Positions 1 to 4,909 of a stretch of 4,909 nucleotides of DNA are shown here, piece by piece (positions within the stretch are counted from its first letter, which is position 1; the number at the start of each line of letters is the position of its first letter). The notes below the pieces were generated by a model. It was not told the origin of the DNA, searched no databases, and saw nothing but the letters and a program-made list of their open reading frames with translations. The DNA is taken from IMG/VR virus record IMGVR_UViG_2703718815_000009. One strand, 5' to 3'. The translations under genes and the position numbers were made by a program. The DNA comes from a virus. Its lineage: Duplodnaviria > Heunggongvirae > Uroviricota > Caudoviricetes.

Positions 1-1230
1 ATGAGCAGAGCACTTAACAAACTGAGCGATACACAGCTGAGGAAAATCAACGGCACACCCGCCCAAAAAACAGCCTTTCTTAATGACGGTGGAAACCTGA
101 GCGTCAGGCATTCAACCAGCGGCCTTTTAACCTGGTATTTCACTTACAGGGCCGGAACGGGAAGGGGGGCACCACCGGAACGCATTAAGCTGGGAAATTA
201 TCCTGATCTGAGCCTGAAATCAGCCAGGGAAAAAGCCGCCCAGTGTCGCGCATGGCTGGCTGAGGGGAAAAATCCACGTCATGAGATGAATTACACCGTA
301 CAGGAAGCGTTAAAGCCGGTAACGGTTGGCGATGCGCTCACCTACTGGCTTGAGTCGTACGCAAAGGAAAACCGTGTGGATTATGACCCACTGAAAAAGC
401 GGCTAAATAATCACGTAATACAGCACATTGGCTCTATGCCGCTGGATAAATGCGAGCTACGGCACTGGCTGGCCTGTTTTGATCGGGTGGCAAAGCAAGC
501 CCCTGTTTCCGCCGGGTTCCTGCTACAGACATGCAAACAGGCGCTTAAGTTCTGCCGGAAGCGGCGCTATGCAATCAGCAACGTTCTTGATGATATGAGT
601 GTGGCTGACGTTGGGAAAAAACCGGATATAAGCGAACGTGTCTTAAGCAATAAAGAACTGGGCGAATTATTGCAGGCACTGGACAAAAAAATATTTTCCC
701 CTTACTACGTCGCACTAATCCGCCTCCTGATTGTTTTCGGATGCCGGACAGTAGAACTGAGGTTATCGGAGATCGGCGAGTGGGATTTTACCGAAATGCT
801 CTGGACTGTTCCGAAGGAGCACAGCAAAACGAAGGTAGCCATATTCCGGCCCATACCGGAAGCGATACTGCCGTTCGTCACGCAGCTGGTGGAGCAGAAC
901 AGGCACACGGGCTTATTGCTGGGGGAAGTGAAACAGGAAACCAGCGTATCGCAGTACGGCAGATTGGTGCACAGGAGGCTTAAACACCCTCACTGGTCAT
1001 TGCATGACATCCGGCGCACCTTTACAACGATGCTGAACGATTTAGGCGTGGATCCTCACGTCGTGGAGCAGCTTACAGGACACCAGATGCCAGGGATGCA
1101 ACGAGTCTATAATCACTCCCGTTATCTGGATGCGAAACGCAATGCGCTGGATATGTGGACGGAGCGGTTAGGGATACTGGCGGGAGCACATGAAAACGTA
1201 ACCACGCTACCAGTAGCCAGAAGAAAATAA
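1..1230 (+). CDS. int: Tyrosine recombinase / site-specific integrase, P4-type phage integrase family
   Basis: 409-aa ORF ending at TAA 1228-1230. The C-terminal region has the tyrosine-recombinase catalytic pattern: HDIRRT (His-x-x-Arg box), then GHQMPGMQRVYNHSRY about 30 aa later carrying the second His and candidate nucleophile Tyr. The N-terminus (LSDTQLRK...DGGNLSV...GLLTWYFTYRAG) fits the arm-binding domain pattern of P4-like integrases. The ATG sits on the first base of the window, so the true start could lie upstream. Confidence 0.9.
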   Translation: MSRALNKLSDTQLRKINGTPAQKTAFLNDGGNLSVRHSTSGLLTWYFTYRAGTGRGAPPERIKLGNYPDLSLKSAREKAAQCRAWLAEGKNPRHEMNYTVQEALKPVTVGDALTYWLESYAKENRVDYDPLKKRLNNHVIQHIGSMPLDKCELRHWLACFDRVAKQAPVSAGFLLQTCKQALKFCRKRRYAISNVLDDMSVADVGKKPDISERVLSNKELGELLQALDKKIFSPYYVALIRLLIVFGCRTVELRLSEIGEWDFTEMLWTVPKEHSKTKVAIFRPIPEAILPFVTQLVEQNRHTGLLLGEVKQETSVSQYGRLVHRRLKHPHWSLHDIRRTFTTMLNDLGVDPHVVEQLTGHQMPGMQRVYNHSRYLDAKRNALDMWTERLGILAGAHENVTTLPVARRK

Positions 1231-1247
1231 TTTTTTTCGTGTTTTTT

Positions 1248-1263
1248 CAGTATGCGCATACTG
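1248..1263. repeat. Perfect 16-bp palindrome CAGTATGCGCATACTG just 3' of the int stop
   Basis: Read directly: CAGTATGC is the reverse complement of GCATACTG. It is preceded by T7-CGTG-T6 and not followed by a U tract on either strand, so it is more likely a dimeric protein-binding site than a terminator. Confidence 0.85.
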
Positions 1264-1285
1264 GATAAGCACACAGATACAACGG

Positions 1286-1325
1286 CGAACAATGTGAAAC
1301 AACGTGGAACAACCACGAACAAGAG
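1286..1325 (+). repeat. Four tandem degenerate ~10-bp direct repeats (cgAACAAtgt / gaAACAAcgt / ggAACAAcca / cgAACAAgag), helically phased
   Basis: An AACAA core recurs at 1288, 1298, 1308 and 1318, an exact 10-bp period, in a T-poor, A/C-rich stretch. Phasing with the helical repeat suggests an iteron-like or protein-binding array; function unknown. Confidence 0.6.
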
Positions 1326-1416
1326 GCGAAAAAGCACACAGGTTTATAAGTGACTGATTTTATTTGTATGACTGGTTTTTTATACATTAGCGAATAACGC
1401 TTTAACGCGTGAGAAA

Positions 1417-1445
1417 AAAGGCATAAAACGAGATTTTATGCCTTT
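1417..1445. repeat. Inverted repeat / stem-loop with perfect 12-bp stem (AAAGGCATAAAA ... TTTTATGCCTTT) and 5-nt loop
   Basis: Read directly. On the + strand the stem is followed by GCATTAATATG, a weak U tract. On the - strand it is followed by TTTCTC. Candidate weak int terminator or regulatory hairpin in the int-alpA intergenic region. Confidence 0.4.
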
Positions 1446-1533
1446 GCATTAATATGAATTTAAATGATTTTATCCTGATTGTTCCTCTTTCTGTAAACCA
1501 TACGGACTCAACATTTGCCAACGCTGAATCATC

Positions 1534-1573
1534 CTGACACAATCAGACACAACCCAACCCAATAACCCACCCA
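1534..1573 (+). promoter_or_regulatory. A/C-rich 10-bp-phased direct repeats upstream of the alpA-like start, candidate regulator-binding region
   Basis: GACACAA occurs at 1536-1542 and 1546-1552, followed by AACCCAA / CCCAATAA / ACCCACCCAA. The strand is almost devoid of G and T, and the tract ends 33 bp upstream of the GTG start at 1606. A possible -35-like TTGCAT lies at 1444-1449, but I could not place a convincing -10. Confidence 0.4.
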
Positions 1574-1605
1574 ATGACTCTTTAAGAAACAACAAAGGGG
1601 GAATT

Positions 1606-1794
1606 GTGTTAAGCACAGATCGCTTTATACGTGAAAAAGAATGTCAGCAACTTACAGGCCTGAGCCGCTCATGTCGGTATCGCCTGGAGAAGACTGGACA
1701 ATTCCCATCACGGCGTAAACTCGGCGGTCGTTCCGTTGGCTGGTCTTTATCCGAAGTTCTGGCATGGAAGGACAGCCGCGAGGCAGTTCACTAA
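1606..1794 (+). CDS. alpA: AlpA-family phage regulatory protein (small winged-HTH activator/excisionase-like)
   Basis: 62-aa ORF with GTG start at 1606, preceded by an AAAGGGGG Shine-Dalgarno at 1594-1601. The translation LTGLSRSCRYRLEKTGQFPSRRKLGGRSVGWSLSEVLAW matches the AlpA-family pattern (TG-x-SR-x3-Y ... FP ... KLG-x-RSVGW ... SEV-x2-W). Its position directly after a P4-type integrase is typical. Confidence 0.85.
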   Translation: MLSTDRFIREKECQQLTGLSRSCRYRLEKTGQFPSRRKLGGRSVGWSLSEVLAWKDSREAVH

Positions 1795-2056
1795 TCAGGC
1801 TGGCGGCGCACCGCCGCCACCCATCCACTAACACAGAGATCTAACCATGAATACTGGATATACGCCCGAACAGGGGCGGGGCTTCGTTCGTCCTGGTGAA
1901 ACTAAAAAGCCATGTTATCGGGTATTTTCAGGCATAAAAAAAGCGGCCCCGATAAGGAACCGCCTTTCTGAACAATTAACCTGCTGCGAAAAAAATGGAT
2001 CAGTGCAGGGGAATTATATCAACCGTGTGGCGAAGCGCCACAATTGCCGGATAACA

Positions 2057-2088
2057 GGCAAAACAAAGGCGACCGCAAAAGGGTCGCC
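2057..2088 (-). terminator. Rho-independent terminator for the minus-strand transcription unit
   Basis: On the minus strand: GGCGACC (stem), CTTTTGC (7-nt loop), GGTCGCC (stem), followed by TTTGTTTTGCC. On the plus strand the same hairpin is followed by AGTGGGAAC with no U tract, so it is oriented to stop leftward transcription from the 2691 gene. Confidence 0.6.
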
Positions 2089-2154
2089 AGTGGGAACAAG
2101 GGAAAACAAAAGCATCACCAACAATGCCACATTTGCGGCTGGTGGGCAATGCAA

Positions 2155-2328
2155 TCAGTCTGGTTCAGTTCGTTGCCATACCTGCAATGAGCGCTTTTCC
2201 CTGTACTCTTTAAGGAATTGCTCAAGGGCAAAAGCACATGGCGCGAATCTTTCTGATTCATGCTCTATCTTTCTGCGTCGTCTTTTCCGTGTCGGTGATA
2301 ATGTTTTGGTCAATTCTTTATCGGTCAT
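2155..2328 (-). CDS. Hypothetical small arginine-rich protein (57 aa), doubtful; may instead be a 3' UTR
   Basis: ORF MTDKELTKTLSPTRKRRRRKIEHESERFAPCAFALEQFLKEYREKRSLQVWQRTEPD. ATG at 2328-2326 is preceded by AGGA with a 7-nt spacer. It lies 57 nt downstream of the regulator gene and about 70 nt upstream of the minus-strand terminator, so it is inside the predicted transcript. Against: it uses AGA/AGG/CGA Arg and ATA Ile codons that the neighbouring genes avoid, and no domain is recognisable. Confidence 0.3.
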   Translation of the reverse strand: MTDKELTKTLSPTRKRRRRKIEHESERFAPCAFALEQFLKEYREKRSLQVWQRTEPD

Positions 2329-2385
2329 TGTGTTGTCCTGCATAGCAATGCGCCGTAATACCTTACACCACGGCGCTGGTGATGG

Positions 2386-2691
2386 TTACTCCTGCTCTTT
2401 GGCCTTGCGACGCTGGAGTTCTTCACGCGCGACGGTGACGAGTTGCCCGATCTCCTCGGCAGCTTTAACTCCGATTTTTTCCACCTGCGCCAGCGCATCG
2501 AGCGAAGAAACCAGGGGGTTTTCTCCGCTTCCTTCTGCCTGGCGGCGGGCGATCTCACCGCGCATGGCGGTTACTATGAATCCGGCGTTGCTTTCGCCGT
2601 CCAGTTTTACGGATTCCATGCCTTCAAAAGCATCATGTGGGATACGAATTGAAATCTGTTTTGATTTGTCGTTGATAGTGTTTTTTGCCAT
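2386..2691 (-). CDS. Small putative DNA-binding regulator, possibly ribbon-helix-helix (Arc/MetJ-like) with a charged helical C-terminal tail
   Basis: 101-aa ORF starting at the ATG at 2691-2689, preceded by a strong AGGAGA Shine-Dalgarno with 6-nt spacer (the upstream in-frame ATGs lack an RBS). Codon usage is good. The N-terminus KQISIRIPHDAFEGMESVKLDGESNAGFIVTAMRGEI has the strand-helix-helix spacing of Arc-type repressors (compare Arc FNLRWPREVLDLVRKVAEENGRSVNSEIYQRVM), a fold-level inference only. The gene abuts an operator-like region with inverted repeats. Confidence 0.7.
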   Translation of the reverse strand: MAKNTINDKSKQISIRIPHDAFEGMESVKLDGESNAGFIVTAMRGEIARRQAEGSGENPLVSSLDALAQVEKIGVKAAEEIGQLVTVAREELQRRKAKEQE

Positions 2692-2713
2692 GTGCATTCT
2701 CCTAAACAAAAGA

Positions 2714-2789
2714 TGTGATTCAGTATACACAAAAAAGAATCACAAAAAATACTTGACCTGTGATTCAGTTGATTTTAATTTAAATCACA
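2714..2789. promoter_or_regulatory. Divergent promoter/operator region with two copies of TGTGATT-N17-AATCACA around a TTGACC -35 element
   Basis: TGTGATTCAGT occurs identically at 2714-2724 and 2759-2769. Inverted partners GAATCACA (2737-2744) and AATCACA (2783-2789) lie at the same offset, giving two ~31-bp sites 45 bp apart. Rightward promoter candidate: -35 TTGACC 2753-2758, 17-bp spacer, -10 TAATTT 2776-2781. Leftward -10 candidate: TATACT (reverse complement of 2722-2727). The second operator overlaps the rightward promoter spacer. Confidence 0.6.
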
Positions 2790-2814
2790 CCTCAGTAAGA
2801 GGATGTAAACGACA

Positions 2815-2848
2815 ACGCCCCGAACTGTTTGCGGCAGTAGCGGGGCGT
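2815..2848 (+). other. GC-rich stem-loop in the 5' leader of the rightward operon (ACGCCCCG ... CGGGGCGT, 8-bp stem, 18-nt loop)
   Basis: Read directly as a perfect 8-bp inverted repeat, with additional CTG/CAG pairing possible inside the loop. There is no downstream U tract, so it is not a terminator; it lies between the predicted promoter and the RBS at 2867-2870. Confidence 0.4.
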
Positions 2849-2878
2849 CTAACCAAACCGTTAAACGAGGTAACGATT

Positions 2879-3223
2879 ATGGCTGGAACACAGCATACCC
2901 AAACTCACCCTAAATTTATATACACCTTCCTGGCGGTGCACCGTGATTGCATAGCTGACGGTAAAAGCACTGTACACGTAGCCGCTGATACGCTGGTTGA
3001 TGCCTGCGAGATGCTCAATGACATGGGTTATATCTCGGCAACATGGAAAGGGCGCGAAGAAAACACGCTGTTTATTCAGAAATGCGAAAACAATTTTATC
3101 TGGCGTTTTATCGCCCTGAGCACGGCACAACCGCGCGTGATTACCATTGAGGCCACCAGCGAACAGGAAGCACGCCAGCGTGATGGTATTCGCCGCCCGT
3201 ATTCGTCAGGGGGTACGCCATGA
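2879..3223 (+). CDS. Hypothetical protein (114 aa), first gene of the rightward operon
   Basis: ATG at 2879 preceded by GAGG (2867-2870) with 8-nt spacer; stop TGA 3221-3223 overlaps the next start (ATGA). This is the only credible part of the 458-aa frame 1847-3223 in the ORF track. No domain recognised. Confidence 0.7.
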   Translation: MAGTQHTQTHPKFIYTFLAVHRDCIADGKSTVHVAADTLVDACEMLNDMGYISATWKGREENTLFIQKCENNFIWRFIALSTAQPRVITIEATSEQEARQRDGIRRPYSSGGTP

Positions 3224-3480
3224 GCAATAACACCCGTCCGGACGCAGTCGCCGAAGCAATCAAAACACTGATTGATGCGCTGATTGATATTTCTGTTATC
3301 GCAGACAAGGCGCATAAGCACGCCACCAGTGAAACAGAATATGCCGGGGCTTTCGTTCCTCACTCACTGGCTGTTATGCAACTTAGTGCTGATATGGCAC
3401 TGAATGAGGCTAAAGCCATCCTGATTGCTGATTGTGAAAATGGGGGGGGGGTATGCGTGATGATCGTTTTAATGCCCTGA
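3220..3480 (+). CDS. Hypothetical protein (86 aa); 3' end runs through the G10 tract
   Basis: ATG at 3220 overlaps the upstream stop (ATGA); GGGGG at 3208-3212 gives an RBS at 7-nt spacing. Alanine-rich and predicted helical. The last 13 codons (GGGVCVMIVLMP) lie after the homopolymer and look like out-of-frame read-through, so the true C-terminus is uncertain. Confidence 0.55.
   Translation: MSNNTRPDAVAEAIKTLIDALIDISVIADKAHKHATSETEYAGAFVPHSLAVMQLSADMALNEAKAILIADCENGGGVCVMIVLMP
3442..3451. repeat. G10 homopolymeric tract at the junction of two overlapping ORFs
   Basis: Ten consecutive G read directly at 3442-3451, encoding GGG of the upstream ORF and ending 1 nt before the ATG (3453) of the next. 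G11 would fuse the two ORFs in frame (...ENGGGGMRDDRF...); G9 would end the upstream ORF at GGGYA-stop. Confidence 0.95.
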
Positions 3481-3686
3481 AACAGGAATTTGATGGCGCA
3501 CCGGAAGATACAGATATTGCGCTGTTATGTGTTGCTGACATGGTAAAAGCTGCAAGTTTTTTACTGGAAACCGCCGAACATTCAGGAACGGGTAGCGATA
3601 TTCTCAATATTGCGTCGGACTATGCGGAATATGTGGCAGAGGCGCGTTACAGAAGAAAATTCCCGGAGAATGTAAGCCATGTGTGA
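3453..3686 (+). CDS. Hypothetical protein (77 aa); possibly the C-terminal half of a frameshift-split or slippage-controlled gene
   Basis: ATG at 3453 immediately after the G10 tract; the 5' G residues of the tract (3442-3445) could act as a Shine-Dalgarno at ~7-nt spacing. Stop TGA 3684-3686 overlaps the next start (ATGTGTGA). Acidic and alanine-rich, no domain recognised. Confidence 0.5.
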   Translation: MRDDRFNALKQEFDGAPEDTDIALLCVADMVKAASFLLETAEHSGTGSDILNIASDYAEYVAEARYRRKFPENVSHV

Positions 3687-3912
3687 TATTTACAATGACA
3701 CAGTAGACCGTGCATACCGTGCTCTTGCTTACAGTGAAAACATGCTTGAAATATTGCGCTTATGGCTTGAAACGCTTGGCGATAATGAAAGAGATAAACG
3801 CAACAGCAATATTGCGACGGCGTTAATAACGCTTCTTGAGCCGGTAATAATGGAACTACAAGAAATAGACCTTTTGCACGACAGATATAAAGAACAACAC
3901 ACCGGGAAATAA
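3679..3912 (+). CDS. Hypothetical protein (77 aa)
   Basis: ATG at 3679 with GGAGA (3665-3669) upstream at 9-nt spacing; overlaps the upstream stop by 8 nt. Predicted helical (MLEILRLWLETLG...), no domain recognised. Confidence 0.6.
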   Translation: MCDIYNDTVDRAYRALAYSENMLEILRLWLETLGDNERDKRNSNIATALITLLEPVIMELQEIDLLHDRYKEQHTGK

Positions 3913-3917
3913 AAACC

Positions 3918-4217
3918 ATGAAAAAGAAAATTTCTGGCTTTACTGCCAGCGGCCCCGTTCGGCCTGAAATCCGCCCCGGCGATATTTTCCGGGATAACTA
4001 TGGCGGCACGGTAACGATTAAAGGCATTGCCGGACGGTGCGTTACTTACCGCCGTGATGGGTACGGCTATGACTGCGTGATGCCTGTTTATCAGTTCCGG
4101 CGTGATTTTTCACTGATACAGGCCACGCCATGCAAACAGCCCACCAGCAACGCAAAGGCACGGGCAAATATTCAGAAAATGAAAAACATGATTAACGCAT
4201 TCAGGGGCACAAAATGA
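3918..4217 (+). CDS. Hypothetical protein (99 aa), basic
   Basis: ATG at 3918, 5 nt after the upstream TAA, with a weak GGGAA RBS; stop TGA 4215-4217 overlaps the start of the next gene (ATGA). No motif recognised. Confidence 0.6.
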   Translation: MKKKISGFTASGPVRPEIRPGDIFRDNYGGTVTIKGIAGRCVTYRRDGYGYDCVMPVYQFRRDFSLIQATPCKQPTSNAKARANIQKMKNMINAFRGTK

Positions 4218-4909
4218 AACTGGCACCGAACTTAAAAAAACAGCCACACGACAAAATGACCGAAGTCATTATTTTTGCAGGTAGTGATGCCTGGGCGCAC
4301 GCGAAACAGTGGCAGGAACAGGACGGGCGACTTGCTGGCGACAACGTGCCACCTGTATGGCTTGGAGACAGCCAGCTTGACGAACTGGCAGACCTGAAAA
4401 TTATCGACGATGGTCGCTATTGTGTGCGTGTGTATAAAGCCGGGCACATCAGACCATCAAACATCAATGCCATCGGGCAAAAGCTGGCGGCGGCAGGTGT
4501 ACGGGATGCGAATTATTACCCCGAGGGAATGCACAGCCAGAAGCTGGAGAACTGGCACGACTACCTGCAACGGATCCGCGAACAGGCAGAGCGCGGGGAA
4601 ATTCTTACTGACGAGCAATACAGCCAGCGAAAAACCACGCTACCAATGAGCATTGGATCTGCAGGGTACGACACACAGCTTGATTATGTCGTTAAGGGCG
4701 TGATTCCGGCTAATTCATTGTGTAGCACATACGGCGCGAGCGGTTCCTATAAATCGTTCCTCGCGTGTTCCTGGGCGTGTCATGTTGCCACGGGTCGCCA
4801 CTGGGGAGGCCGCAGGGTGGCGCATGGTTCGGTGATGTATGTCGTCGGTGAAGGTGGCATTGGTGTCCCTCGTCGTATCAAAGCATGGGAAATCGTTAAT
4901 GATGAACGG
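4214..4909 (+). CDS. RepA-like replicative P-loop NTPase (AAA_25 / RecA-fold helicase family), 3' partial, runs off the window
   Basis: Open frame from ATG 4214 (AGGGG RBS upstream, coupled to the preceding stop) to the window end, 232 codons with no stop. Residues ~150-215, SLCSTYGASGSYKSFLACSWACHVATGRHWGGRRVAHGSVMYVVGEG, parallel the P-loop and following strand of RSF1010 RepA-type helicases (GGAGKSMLALQLAAQIAGG...GPVIYLPAED). The Walker-A-like motif GASGSYKS is deviant, with Tyr where the second Gly normally sits. The ~150-aa N-terminal region is unassigned. Confidence 0.75.
   Translation, partial: MKLAPNLKKQPHDKMTEVIIFAGSDAWAHAKQWQEQDGRLAGDNVPPVWLGDSQLDELADLKIIDDGRYCVRVYKAGHIRPSNINAIGQKLAAAGVRDANYYPEGMHSQKLENWHDYLQRIREQAERGEILTDEQYSQRKTTLPMSIGSAGYDTQLDYVVKGVIPANSLCSTYGASGSYKSFLACSWACHVATGRHWGGRRVAHGSVMYVVGEGGIGVPRRIKAWEIVNDER

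Follow-up and report, generated by a model that had tools for sequence, protein, structure and literature searches.

The 4,909-nucleotide stretch of DNA analyzed here (IMG/VR record IMGVR_UViG_2703718815_000009; referred to below as the window) is very likely the left 4.9 kb of an integrated Escherichia coli phage-inducible chromosomal island (PICI) measuring about 15 kb as a whole and most likely of the capsid-forming type (cf-PICI). Its place among the PICI-type phage satellites is close to certain, and sequence comparison with its nearest relatives makes it likely that this particular copy is capsid forming. The element belongs to a known, well-studied family, of which only regulatory details hold some novelty. 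The window derives from the E. coli draft contig LOIP01000001.1 (assembly GCA_001607335.1; locus L015, positions 7123 to 12031), whose upstream flank (potABCD, pepT, roxA) is 98.4% identical to that of E. coli K-12. Because the contig ends at window base 4909, repA is cut at residue 232 of 471 and the right flank of 10 to 20 kb is absent from the source assembly; it was therefore read from relatives. All the components named in an earlier, sequence-only reading of the window, i.e., int, alpA, a divergent switch (positions 2386 to 2879), and a RepA-type gene, were found where that reading had placed them (Table 1). Its remark that these 4.9 kb contain no structural phage genes also held, neither the open reading frame (ORF) list nor the family scans revealing any capsid, tail, or lysis gene within the window. 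As it had proposed, only the integration, regulation, and replication end of the element is visible, up to the truncated RepA.

Two experimentally studied islands carry the assignment to the PICI family: EcCIEDL933, the prototype cf-PICI from E. coli O157:H7 EDL933 (Alqurainy et al., 10.1101/2022.09.08.507074), and EcCICFT073, the prototype Gram-negative PICI, of the classical kind (Fillol-Salom et al. 2018, PMC6092414). Both occupy the same attachment (att) site as the element, between roxA and phoQ, and encode closely similar proteins, with identities for EcCIEDL933 and EcCICFT073, respectively, of 96.3% and 95.6% for Int, 90.3% and 96.8% for AlpA, and 98% in both cases for the product of a small ORF, orf57. 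The integrase had been described as P4 type; this stands for its domain architecture only, its identity to the Int of satellite P4 being 23%. Both islands also have the gene order of the window, which in EcCIEDL933 reads int, alpA, an open frame, an icd-like gene, small ORFs, a DUF4222 gene, and a replication gene. Unlike the window, EcCIEDL933 lacks ylcI and encodes a DUF927 primase-type replication protein sharing only the first ~131 residues, at 66%. EcCICFT073, in turn, has a ylcI-type gene divergent from its icd-like gene, with the same promoter/operator geometry as in the window, although its YlcI is shorter (59 aa) and differs in the reading strand, the half-sites being GTGGGCCACAC; it differs further in its primase replication gene and in its classical late region (capsid-like and decoration genes, no portal or TerL). 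The layout typical of Gram-negative PICIs, with int at the left end pointing inward and followed by alpA in the same orientation, is found in the window as well. Conjointly, the prototypes' integrases, att site, and gene order support the satellite or PICI-like interpretation made from the sequence alone.

The att core was defined by aligning the empty site of K-12, where roxA and phoQ lie 75 bp apart, with both junctions of the complete relative L016. In K-12, the attB core GGGCATATTT abuts the phoQ stop codon on its 3′ side, within the roxA-phoQ spacer. The attL core GGACATATTT of the source contig (L015 6942 to 6951, i.e., 171 to 180 bp upstream of window base 1) differs from it by one base, and the same GGACATATTT core also flanks EcCIEDL933, EcCICFT073, and other islands. 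In the relatives attR is situated ~9.8 kb past the end of the window, so that both att sites were correctly placed outside it. Direct repeats flank the islands at this site, as had been expected, but the tRNA or tmRNA target expected with them was not found: the core sits in the roxA-phoQ spacer, and a tRNA/tmRNA scan of the window detected no gene. The 75-nt direct repeats that were first taken as the att sites turned out, on comparison with the K-12 empty site, to be arm repeats internal to the element; the actual core is a 10-bp repeat located outward of them. There is one 75-nt repeat in each attP arm, containing two copies of GGTGTAGTTAAT plus phased TTGTT repeats, a layout usual for arm-type and accessory-factor sites. 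Measured from core to core, EcCIEDL933 is 15.46 kb long, in agreement with its published size of 15.4 kb (10.1101/2022.09.08.507074), EcCICFT073 is 11.45 kb, and L016 is 14.9 kb; across the relatives the distance is 11.1 to 15.5 kb, and tail or lysis genes are absent from all those examined. On the basis of this sequence comparison, Int would recombine the attP core GG(G/A)CATATTT with the identical 10 bp just 3′ of phoQ.

What lies beyond the contig end can be read from five loci (L004/L009, L006/L011, and L012) that show 0 to 3 substitutions relative to the window, from which they differ also by a 17-bp indel at 3177/3178 and in the length of a G run. In these loci, repA is followed by an iteron array, an 83-aa ORF, SSB, and a ProQ/FinO-like gene; then by genes for an HK97-type capsid, S78 protease, portal, connector, HNH protein, P27-type TerS, and TerL, and a 94-aa ORF; and finally by ~630 bp of noncoding DNA and attR. 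No tail or lysis genes were found in the interior of these islands. The cf-PICI gene set (capsid, protease, portal, connector, HNH, TerS, and TerL, without tails) is present in all five loci and in L016, and all six contigs with an identical integrase carry the module. The capsid-protease-portal-connector-HNH-TerS-TerL module is shared with EcCIEDL933 at 58 to 94% protein identity; EcCIEDL933 has PerC and two connector genes, the relatives of the window a ProQ-like gene and a single connector gene. Defense or virulence cargo had been expected beyond the window, an expectation not borne out by the closest relatives, which hold SSB, the ProQ/FinO-like gene, and the capsid and packaging module instead, and a PADLOC search of the accessory proteins of the closest relative returned no defense family. 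Since the closest relatives carry a capsid and packaging module, the missing half most likely encodes head and packaging functions and not cargo. As seen in these near-identical relatives, the element would build its own small capsids and package itself into them, requiring only tails from the helper.

The right end of L009 has two 43-nt direct repeats, 144 bp apart (L009 19953 to 20139), within the ~630-bp noncoding stretch before attR, which could be a cos/packaging region or a hot spot for accessory genes. Two further islands showed other arrangements. In L010 (1 to 19446), a Shiga toxin (Stx) prophage houses a cf-PICI that shares DUF4222-RepA and the head module with the elements above and carries two alpA genes and a Bro-N gene; Stx A and B, holins, and endolysin lie upstream, and int comes directly after phage HNH and TerS genes. 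This arrangement resembles the helper-embedded satellites described in PMC10111431. L014 (5800 to 16921) has the same early operon and RepA with a different integrase and site and two PerC genes; it adjoins an AIDA-type autotransporter, no capsid or terminase genes were called in it, and its late region may be degenerate or different. In complete E. coli genomes, 1,918 of 5,426 gave some match to the window, 152 of them over at least 80% of its length. Many E. coli genomes carry two to seven related elements, so the contig break probably reflects a repeat common to a second satellite in the same genome.

Table 1. Features of the window and of its attachment sites (positions are those of the window; attB, attL, and attR lie outside it)
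Feature	Position	Strand	Description
int	1-1230	+	Tyrosine integrase, 409 aa; Pfam PF13356 Arm-DNA-bind_3 6e-18, PF00589 Phage_integrase 4e-17
Phased TTGTT array	1279-1322	-	10-bp period; TTGTTCGTGG TTGTTCCACG TTGTTTCACA TTGTTCGCCG TTGT
Perfect 12-bp inverted repeat	1417-1445	.	AAAGGCATAAAA-N5-TTTTATGCCTTT; int-alpA spacer
alpA promoter candidate	1515-1543	+	Sigma-70-like, TTGCCA-17-CACAAT with upstream TG; consensus match only
alpA	1606-1794	+	62-aa winged-helix regulator; PF05930 3e-18
Long open frame	1847-3223	+	458 codons; starts 53 nt past alpA stop, ends as Icd-like domain
Intrinsic terminator candidate	2068-2088	-	For leftward ylcI-orf57 transcript; 7-pair stem (6 G-C), then TTTGTTTT
orf57	2155-2328	-	Small 57-codon ORF downstream of ylcI; phrog_21027 1e-15; coding status uncertain
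ylcI	2386-2691	-	YlcI/YnfO-family ribbon-helix-helix protein, 101 aa; NCBIfam NF041551 4e-18; candidate repressor of internal early promoter
Dyad operator 1	2714-2744	.	TGTGATTCAG...GAATCACA
Internal rightward promoter candidate	2753-2781	+	-35 TTGACC (2753-2758), 17-nt spacer, -10 TAATTT (2776-2781); predicted
Dyad operator 2	2759-2789	.	TGTGATTCAG...AATCACA; overlaps spacer, -10, and start of rightward promoter
Leader stem-loop	2815-2848, octamer to 2854	+	ACGCCCCG...CGGGGCGT, then TCTAACCA
Icd-like gene	2879-3223	+	NF033153 7e-13, positions 1-32 of 48 only
Two ORFs, halves of one 154-aa family	3220-3480, 3453-3686	+	phrog_2512 residues 1-77 and 78-153
77-aa ORF, early operon	3679-3912	+	phrog_2196 1.5e-38; synteny conserved
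DUF4222 gene	3918-4217	+	PF13973 7e-24
repA	4214-4909	+	RepA-type AAA_25 helicase (PF13481, 9e-21), first 232 of 471 residues
attB			gtgaagtatGGGCATATTTattcatc; K-12 empty site
attL			gtgaagtatGG(G/A)CATATTTtatcaatt; junction alignment
attR			gtgataaaaGG(G/A)CATATTTattcatc; junction alignment

The regulatory center of the window is a divergent pair in which the YlcI/YnfO-family gene, on the minus strand, faces the Icd-like gene on the plus strand. The YlcI-like protein has the N-terminal strand-helix-helix fold of ribbon-helix-helix (RHH) proteins (Arc/MetJ/CopG), and the interval between the two genes contains two dyad operators and the candidate rightward promoter, in which CTTGA is invariant among seven variants and is followed 17 nt later by a TAA-type hexamer. 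Operator geometry is constant while the half-site sequence is allele specific, with seven allele classes being recognized. In the five alleles from the first relatives, with half-sites TGTGATTC, TGTGTTTC, TGGTATTC, GTGTTCAACAC, and GTGGGCCACAC, a change in the half-site sequence is accompanied by a change in the residues of the N-terminal strand, the positions remaining fixed. An out-of-sample test of this link in four further homologues, all located between alpA and a DUF4222-primase or DUF4222-RepA pair, agreed with both predictions made: a Klebsiella michiganensis element with the window-type strand had TGTGATTCAG/AATCACA dyads, and a Photorhabdus element with the L001-type strand had GTGTGTTTC/GAAACACAC; two new strands among these homologues each paired with new half-sites. 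There is thus good comparative evidence that the YlcI-like protein would bind the dyads and repress the early promoter and probably also its own. In the quiescent island, this divergent RHH protein would bind the two dyads, which overlap the internal rightward promoter and probably its own, and in this way keep the early operon off. Downstream of ylcI, orf57 shows weak codon periodicity.

A divergent regulatory pair between int and the replication module is also found in the Staphylococcus aureus pathogenicity islands (SaPIs) and other Gram-positive PICIs, which resemble the window further in having a small DNA-binding protein transcribed away from the early operon and an origin located after rep. 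Their master repressor (Stl/Rpr) is, however, a helix-turn-helix protein, in contrast to the putative RHH repressor of the window, encoded on the strand opposite int; and while SaPIs rely on Stl-type control, induction in the E. coli elements proceeds via the AlpA activator (PMC6092414).

The ylcI gene, like orf57, lies antisense to a long frame that starts shortly after alpA and extends over both genes and the internal promoters. In the window this frame has no stops, compared with 25 and 25 in the other plus-strand frames; in nine diverged elements it again has no stops versus 12 to 34 in the other plus-strand frames. None of 2,000 shuffles was open. All 13 relatives examined keep the frame open, those with five different ylcI/operator cassettes included, and its start context, CAGAGnTnTAACCATG, is conserved. 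Between 1847 and 2154 there are indels, and the substitutions lack codon periodicity, on account of which the frame had been considered spurious, a view revised once it was found open in the 13 relatives. The sequence data are best read as a frame that is kept open without being constrained as a protein. The long frame and ylcI share their wobble position, which lowers the cost of staying open in that part. Annotation of its pieces in RefSeq is inconsistent: there is a 247-aa "hypothetical protein" in EDL933 (L021 22169 to 22912), and a pseudogene plus a 135-aa "Icd-like protein" running across the promoter region in FDAARGOS_1249 (L016 4847 to 5384 and 5564 to 5971). In CFT073, the long frame includes a weak Bro-N/Ant-like remnant (PHROG E value, 6e-5).

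A parallel is offered by satellite P4, which has, like the window, an arm-binding integrase, a Vis/AlpA regulator, a long frame (eta) spanning an internal early promoter and control region, and an early operon that ends in a replication gene (PMC10111431). In the account of Forti et al. (1999) given in PMC10111431, eta follows vis and spans the internal promoter and the immunity region, and its translation from the upstream late promoter is required to prevent termination. By analogy, the alpA transcript of the window would run into the long frame, translation of which would prevent termination and so carry expression past the internal control region into the operon extending from the icd-like gene through DUF4222 to repA. 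The frame would accordingly be maintained for its translation rather than its product, with a helper-induced alpA transcript reading through to the replication operon, a scheme that we infer from the comparison with P4. Immunity in P4 is RNA based (CI/seqA), whereas the window has a divergent RHH gene lying antisense within the frame; a covariance model scan of the whole window against Rfam (E value up to 1) gave no match, C4 and isrK included. A C4/CI-type immunity RNA and a tRNA target, both considered as candidates, were dropped following the empty Rfam and tRNA/tmRNA scans.

The leader ahead of the Icd-like gene contains a stem-loop of 12 pairs, three of them with compensatory changes among five variants (folding z-score, -2.0), which is also present in the Klebsiella and Photorhabdus relatives. 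The octamer that follows it, TCTAACCA, occurs only twice in the window, at 1839 to 1846 and at 2847 to 2854, each time after a G+C-rich hairpin (1801 to 1819 and 2815 to 2848); the ATG of the long frame comes straight after one copy, and that of the icd-like gene 25 nt after the other. In the Klebsiella and Photorhabdus relatives the motif after the second hairpin is CT(A/G)AC(C/T)A. No sequence complementary to the octamer was found nearby.

AlpA of the window is 46% identical to P4 Vis, in addition to its close similarity to the prototype regulators. In EcCICFT073 and EcCIEDL933, alpA is needed for induction, excision, replication, and transfer, and helper phage-dependent alpA induction and high-frequency transfer have been demonstrated experimentally (PMC6092414; 10.1101/2022.09.08.507074). 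With 90 to 97% identity to the prototypes, the same inducer role is the default for alpA of the window, that is, as the inducible activator of the PICI cycle by analogy; a helper phage would turn it on as in the experiments with those elements. The TTTGCCA of its candidate promoter is invariant in the alignment. In the spacer between int and alpA, the phased TTGTT array (three matches versus 0.16 expected) is kept in six elements and is found again in both att arms (upstream of int in the case of attL) and, in the cf-PICI relatives, ~200 bp upstream of the capsid gene, with no matches in 53 kb of unrelated sequence; these arrays are candidate sites for AlpA or for the arm domain of Int. The perfect inverted repeat in the same spacer has its right arm and most of its left arm conserved in six elements. 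It is followed on the minus strand by a terminator-like T run, there being no known minus-strand gene that ends at this point, and could be either a hairpin with a minus-strand T run or a protein site.

The early operon begins with the Icd-like gene, whose 114-aa product contains two related domains in tandem (KFIYTFLAV...ATWKGRE and NFIWRFIAL...FAARIRQ); in most relatives there is only one. The first of the two bears a weak similarity to the C-terminal portion of the P4 "cI ORF" (E value, 7e-4). A 17-bp deletion at 3177/3178 (GCAATCTCCTGATGGCT in relatives) shifts the frame in the window, with loss of the conserved C terminus GCVMVFAARIRQG that is present in six relatives. The shifted variant is encoded by LOIP01000001.1 only, being seen in two samples, and was distinctive enough for the window to be traced to that contig; at the end of its new frame it overlaps the next ORF by an ATGA. 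A tblastn search of the Icd-like protein against phages retrieved only one record, a 16.5-kb "induced prophage." The two ORFs that follow are halves of one 154-aa family, split at a run of 10 Gs (3442 to 3451); the run has 9 Gs in L004, which is also split, and 8 in L006/L012, where both ORFs are called as a single 154-aa protein. The ATG of the second ORF comes directly after the run, which could also serve as a ribosome-binding site. The differences in run length may be slippage-prone variation or sequencing error, and both the 17-bp deletion and the G10 split could be either real decay or assembly error.

In all relatives, including the Klebsiella and Escherichia elements, the DUF4222 gene is immediately upstream of the replication gene; its product is 69% and 65% identical to those of EcCICFT073 and EcCIEDL933, respectively. 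The visible part of RepA is 100% identical to that of L009 and 97.8% identical to that of the TW10590 island, a classical PICI at abgR-smrA, while the primase/DUF927 replication proteins of the prototypes share with it only the first ~131 residues, so that the replication gene is a module swap relative to the prototypes. This N-terminal segment (residues 1 to 131; positions 4214 to 4606) is 62 to 66% identical to the N termini of the otherwise unrelated EcCICFT073 primase and EcCIEDL933 DUF927 protein, which suggests a shared, exchangeable module, perhaps for origin or partner recognition. Directly after repA, L009 (no substitutions relative to the window) has three 18-nt iterons with 83- to 85-bp spacing. 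The RepA helicase, whose gene begins in the window, would act on the iterons that in relatives lie immediately downstream of it.

Several observations weigh against the interpretation of the window as part of a functional cf-PICI regulated as described above. The contig stops in repA, and the cf-PICI assignment is drawn from the closest relatives only, in a group where mosaicism is extensive and classical PICIs share the left half and the att site. Published phylogenies indicate that classical PICIs and cf-PICIs have the first half in common and exchange it (PMC10085698), so int, alpA, and rep alone cannot tell one from the other. The window could then belong to a classical PICI like EcCICFT073, whose right half would carry a capsid-remodeling gene, a decoration protein, and a TerS/Rpp-like gene and which would depend on helper capsids for packaging. 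The common att site and int-alpA-...-rep layout fit this alternative, as does the fact that the most similar RepA outside the identical set comes from the classical TW10590 island; nevertheless, with the five loci differing by 0 to 3 substitutions and the six identical-integrase contigs all carrying the cf-PICI module, we regard it as unlikely. Concerning the functional state, the frameshifted icd-like gene and the split 154-aa gene mean that this copy may be partly decayed. Taken together with an attL core one base off that of K-12 attB, they might suggest a cryptic remnant no longer capable of mobilization. Such a degree of decay seems slightly less probable again, given that int, alpA, ylcI, DUF4222, and the visible repA are undamaged and do not differ from their counterparts in complete relatives, that the same GGACATATTT core flanks the mobile EcCIEDL933 and EcCICFT073, and that the 154-aa protein occurs in split form often enough for PHROG families of that form to exist, quite apart from the possible assembly origin of either indel. 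As to regulation, EcCIEDL933 is fully mobilizable without ylcI, so that the PICI cycle cannot depend on the RHH protein; moreover, the promoter assignments are at consensus level only, and the roles given to YlcI, the TTGTT arrays, and the long frame are all inferred.

Other kinds of element account for the data far less well than a PICI does. An integrase gene accompanied by a Xis-like gene and a replication gene, with capsid and terminase genes in the relatives, might also belong to a complete or defective temperate prophage or to a conjugative or mobilizable island. This is very improbable, since the relatives are bounded by att repeats at 11 to 15.5 kb and have no tail, lysis, relaxase, or type IV secretion genes, and an inward int followed by alpA is a satellite layout (PMC10111431). 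A complete prophage with capsid and tail genes, which would have spoken against a satellite according to the sequence-only reading, is not what the relatives contain: they have capsid genes and no tails. A P4-like satellite, exploiting P2-type helpers and redirecting capsid size through Sid, Psu, and Delta, would explain the arm-type N-terminal domain of the integrase, the similarity of AlpA to Vis, the eta-like open frame after the regulator, and the weak resemblance of the Icd-like domain to the P4 "cI ORF." Against it, Int is only 23% identical to its P4 counterpart, RepA is a helicase rather than an alpha primase, no C4/isrK RNA was matched, and tblastn searches of P4 proteins against the complete relative L016 (E value up to 1) gave only noise, with no sid, delta, psu, or epsilon. 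The divergence of Int and the absence of these genes from L016 indicate a PICI and not a P4-like satellite, a possibility that we consider negligible.

Overall, the identity of the window itself is of minor importance, this E. coli site being known for experimentally characterized PICIs and cf-PICIs that are catalogued in the thousands, but the window is a clean example of the left arm common to classical and capsid-forming PICIs. Its interest lies in regulation. The global repressor in Gram-negative PICIs was described in 2018 as unclear (Fillol-Salom et al. 2018, PMC6092414). A full-text literature search combining PICI, satellite, E. coli, and ribbon-helix-helix retrieved no paper, one 2026 satellite survey mentioning YlcI/YnfO. 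The covariation between operator and allele of the RHH protein, which may be new, points to a specific candidate repressor; the long open, unconstrained frame may likewise be a new regulatory detail, and by analogy it suggests that the antitermination logic of P4 eta could be general in the Gram-negative PICI group. We put forward tentatively, and as somewhat less than an even prospect, that many enterobacterial PICIs possess an undescribed protein-based immunity switch, in which a YlcI/YnfO-family RHH protein with allele-specific dyad operators represses the icd-to-rep promoter from a gene lying antisense inside an eta-like frame and is overridden by AlpA-driven read-through, the frame staying open solely to let ribosomes accompany the helper-induced alpA transcript through the switch. 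If true, the RHH switch would supply the "global repressor" of Gram-negative PICIs, with read-through driven by AlpA as its override.

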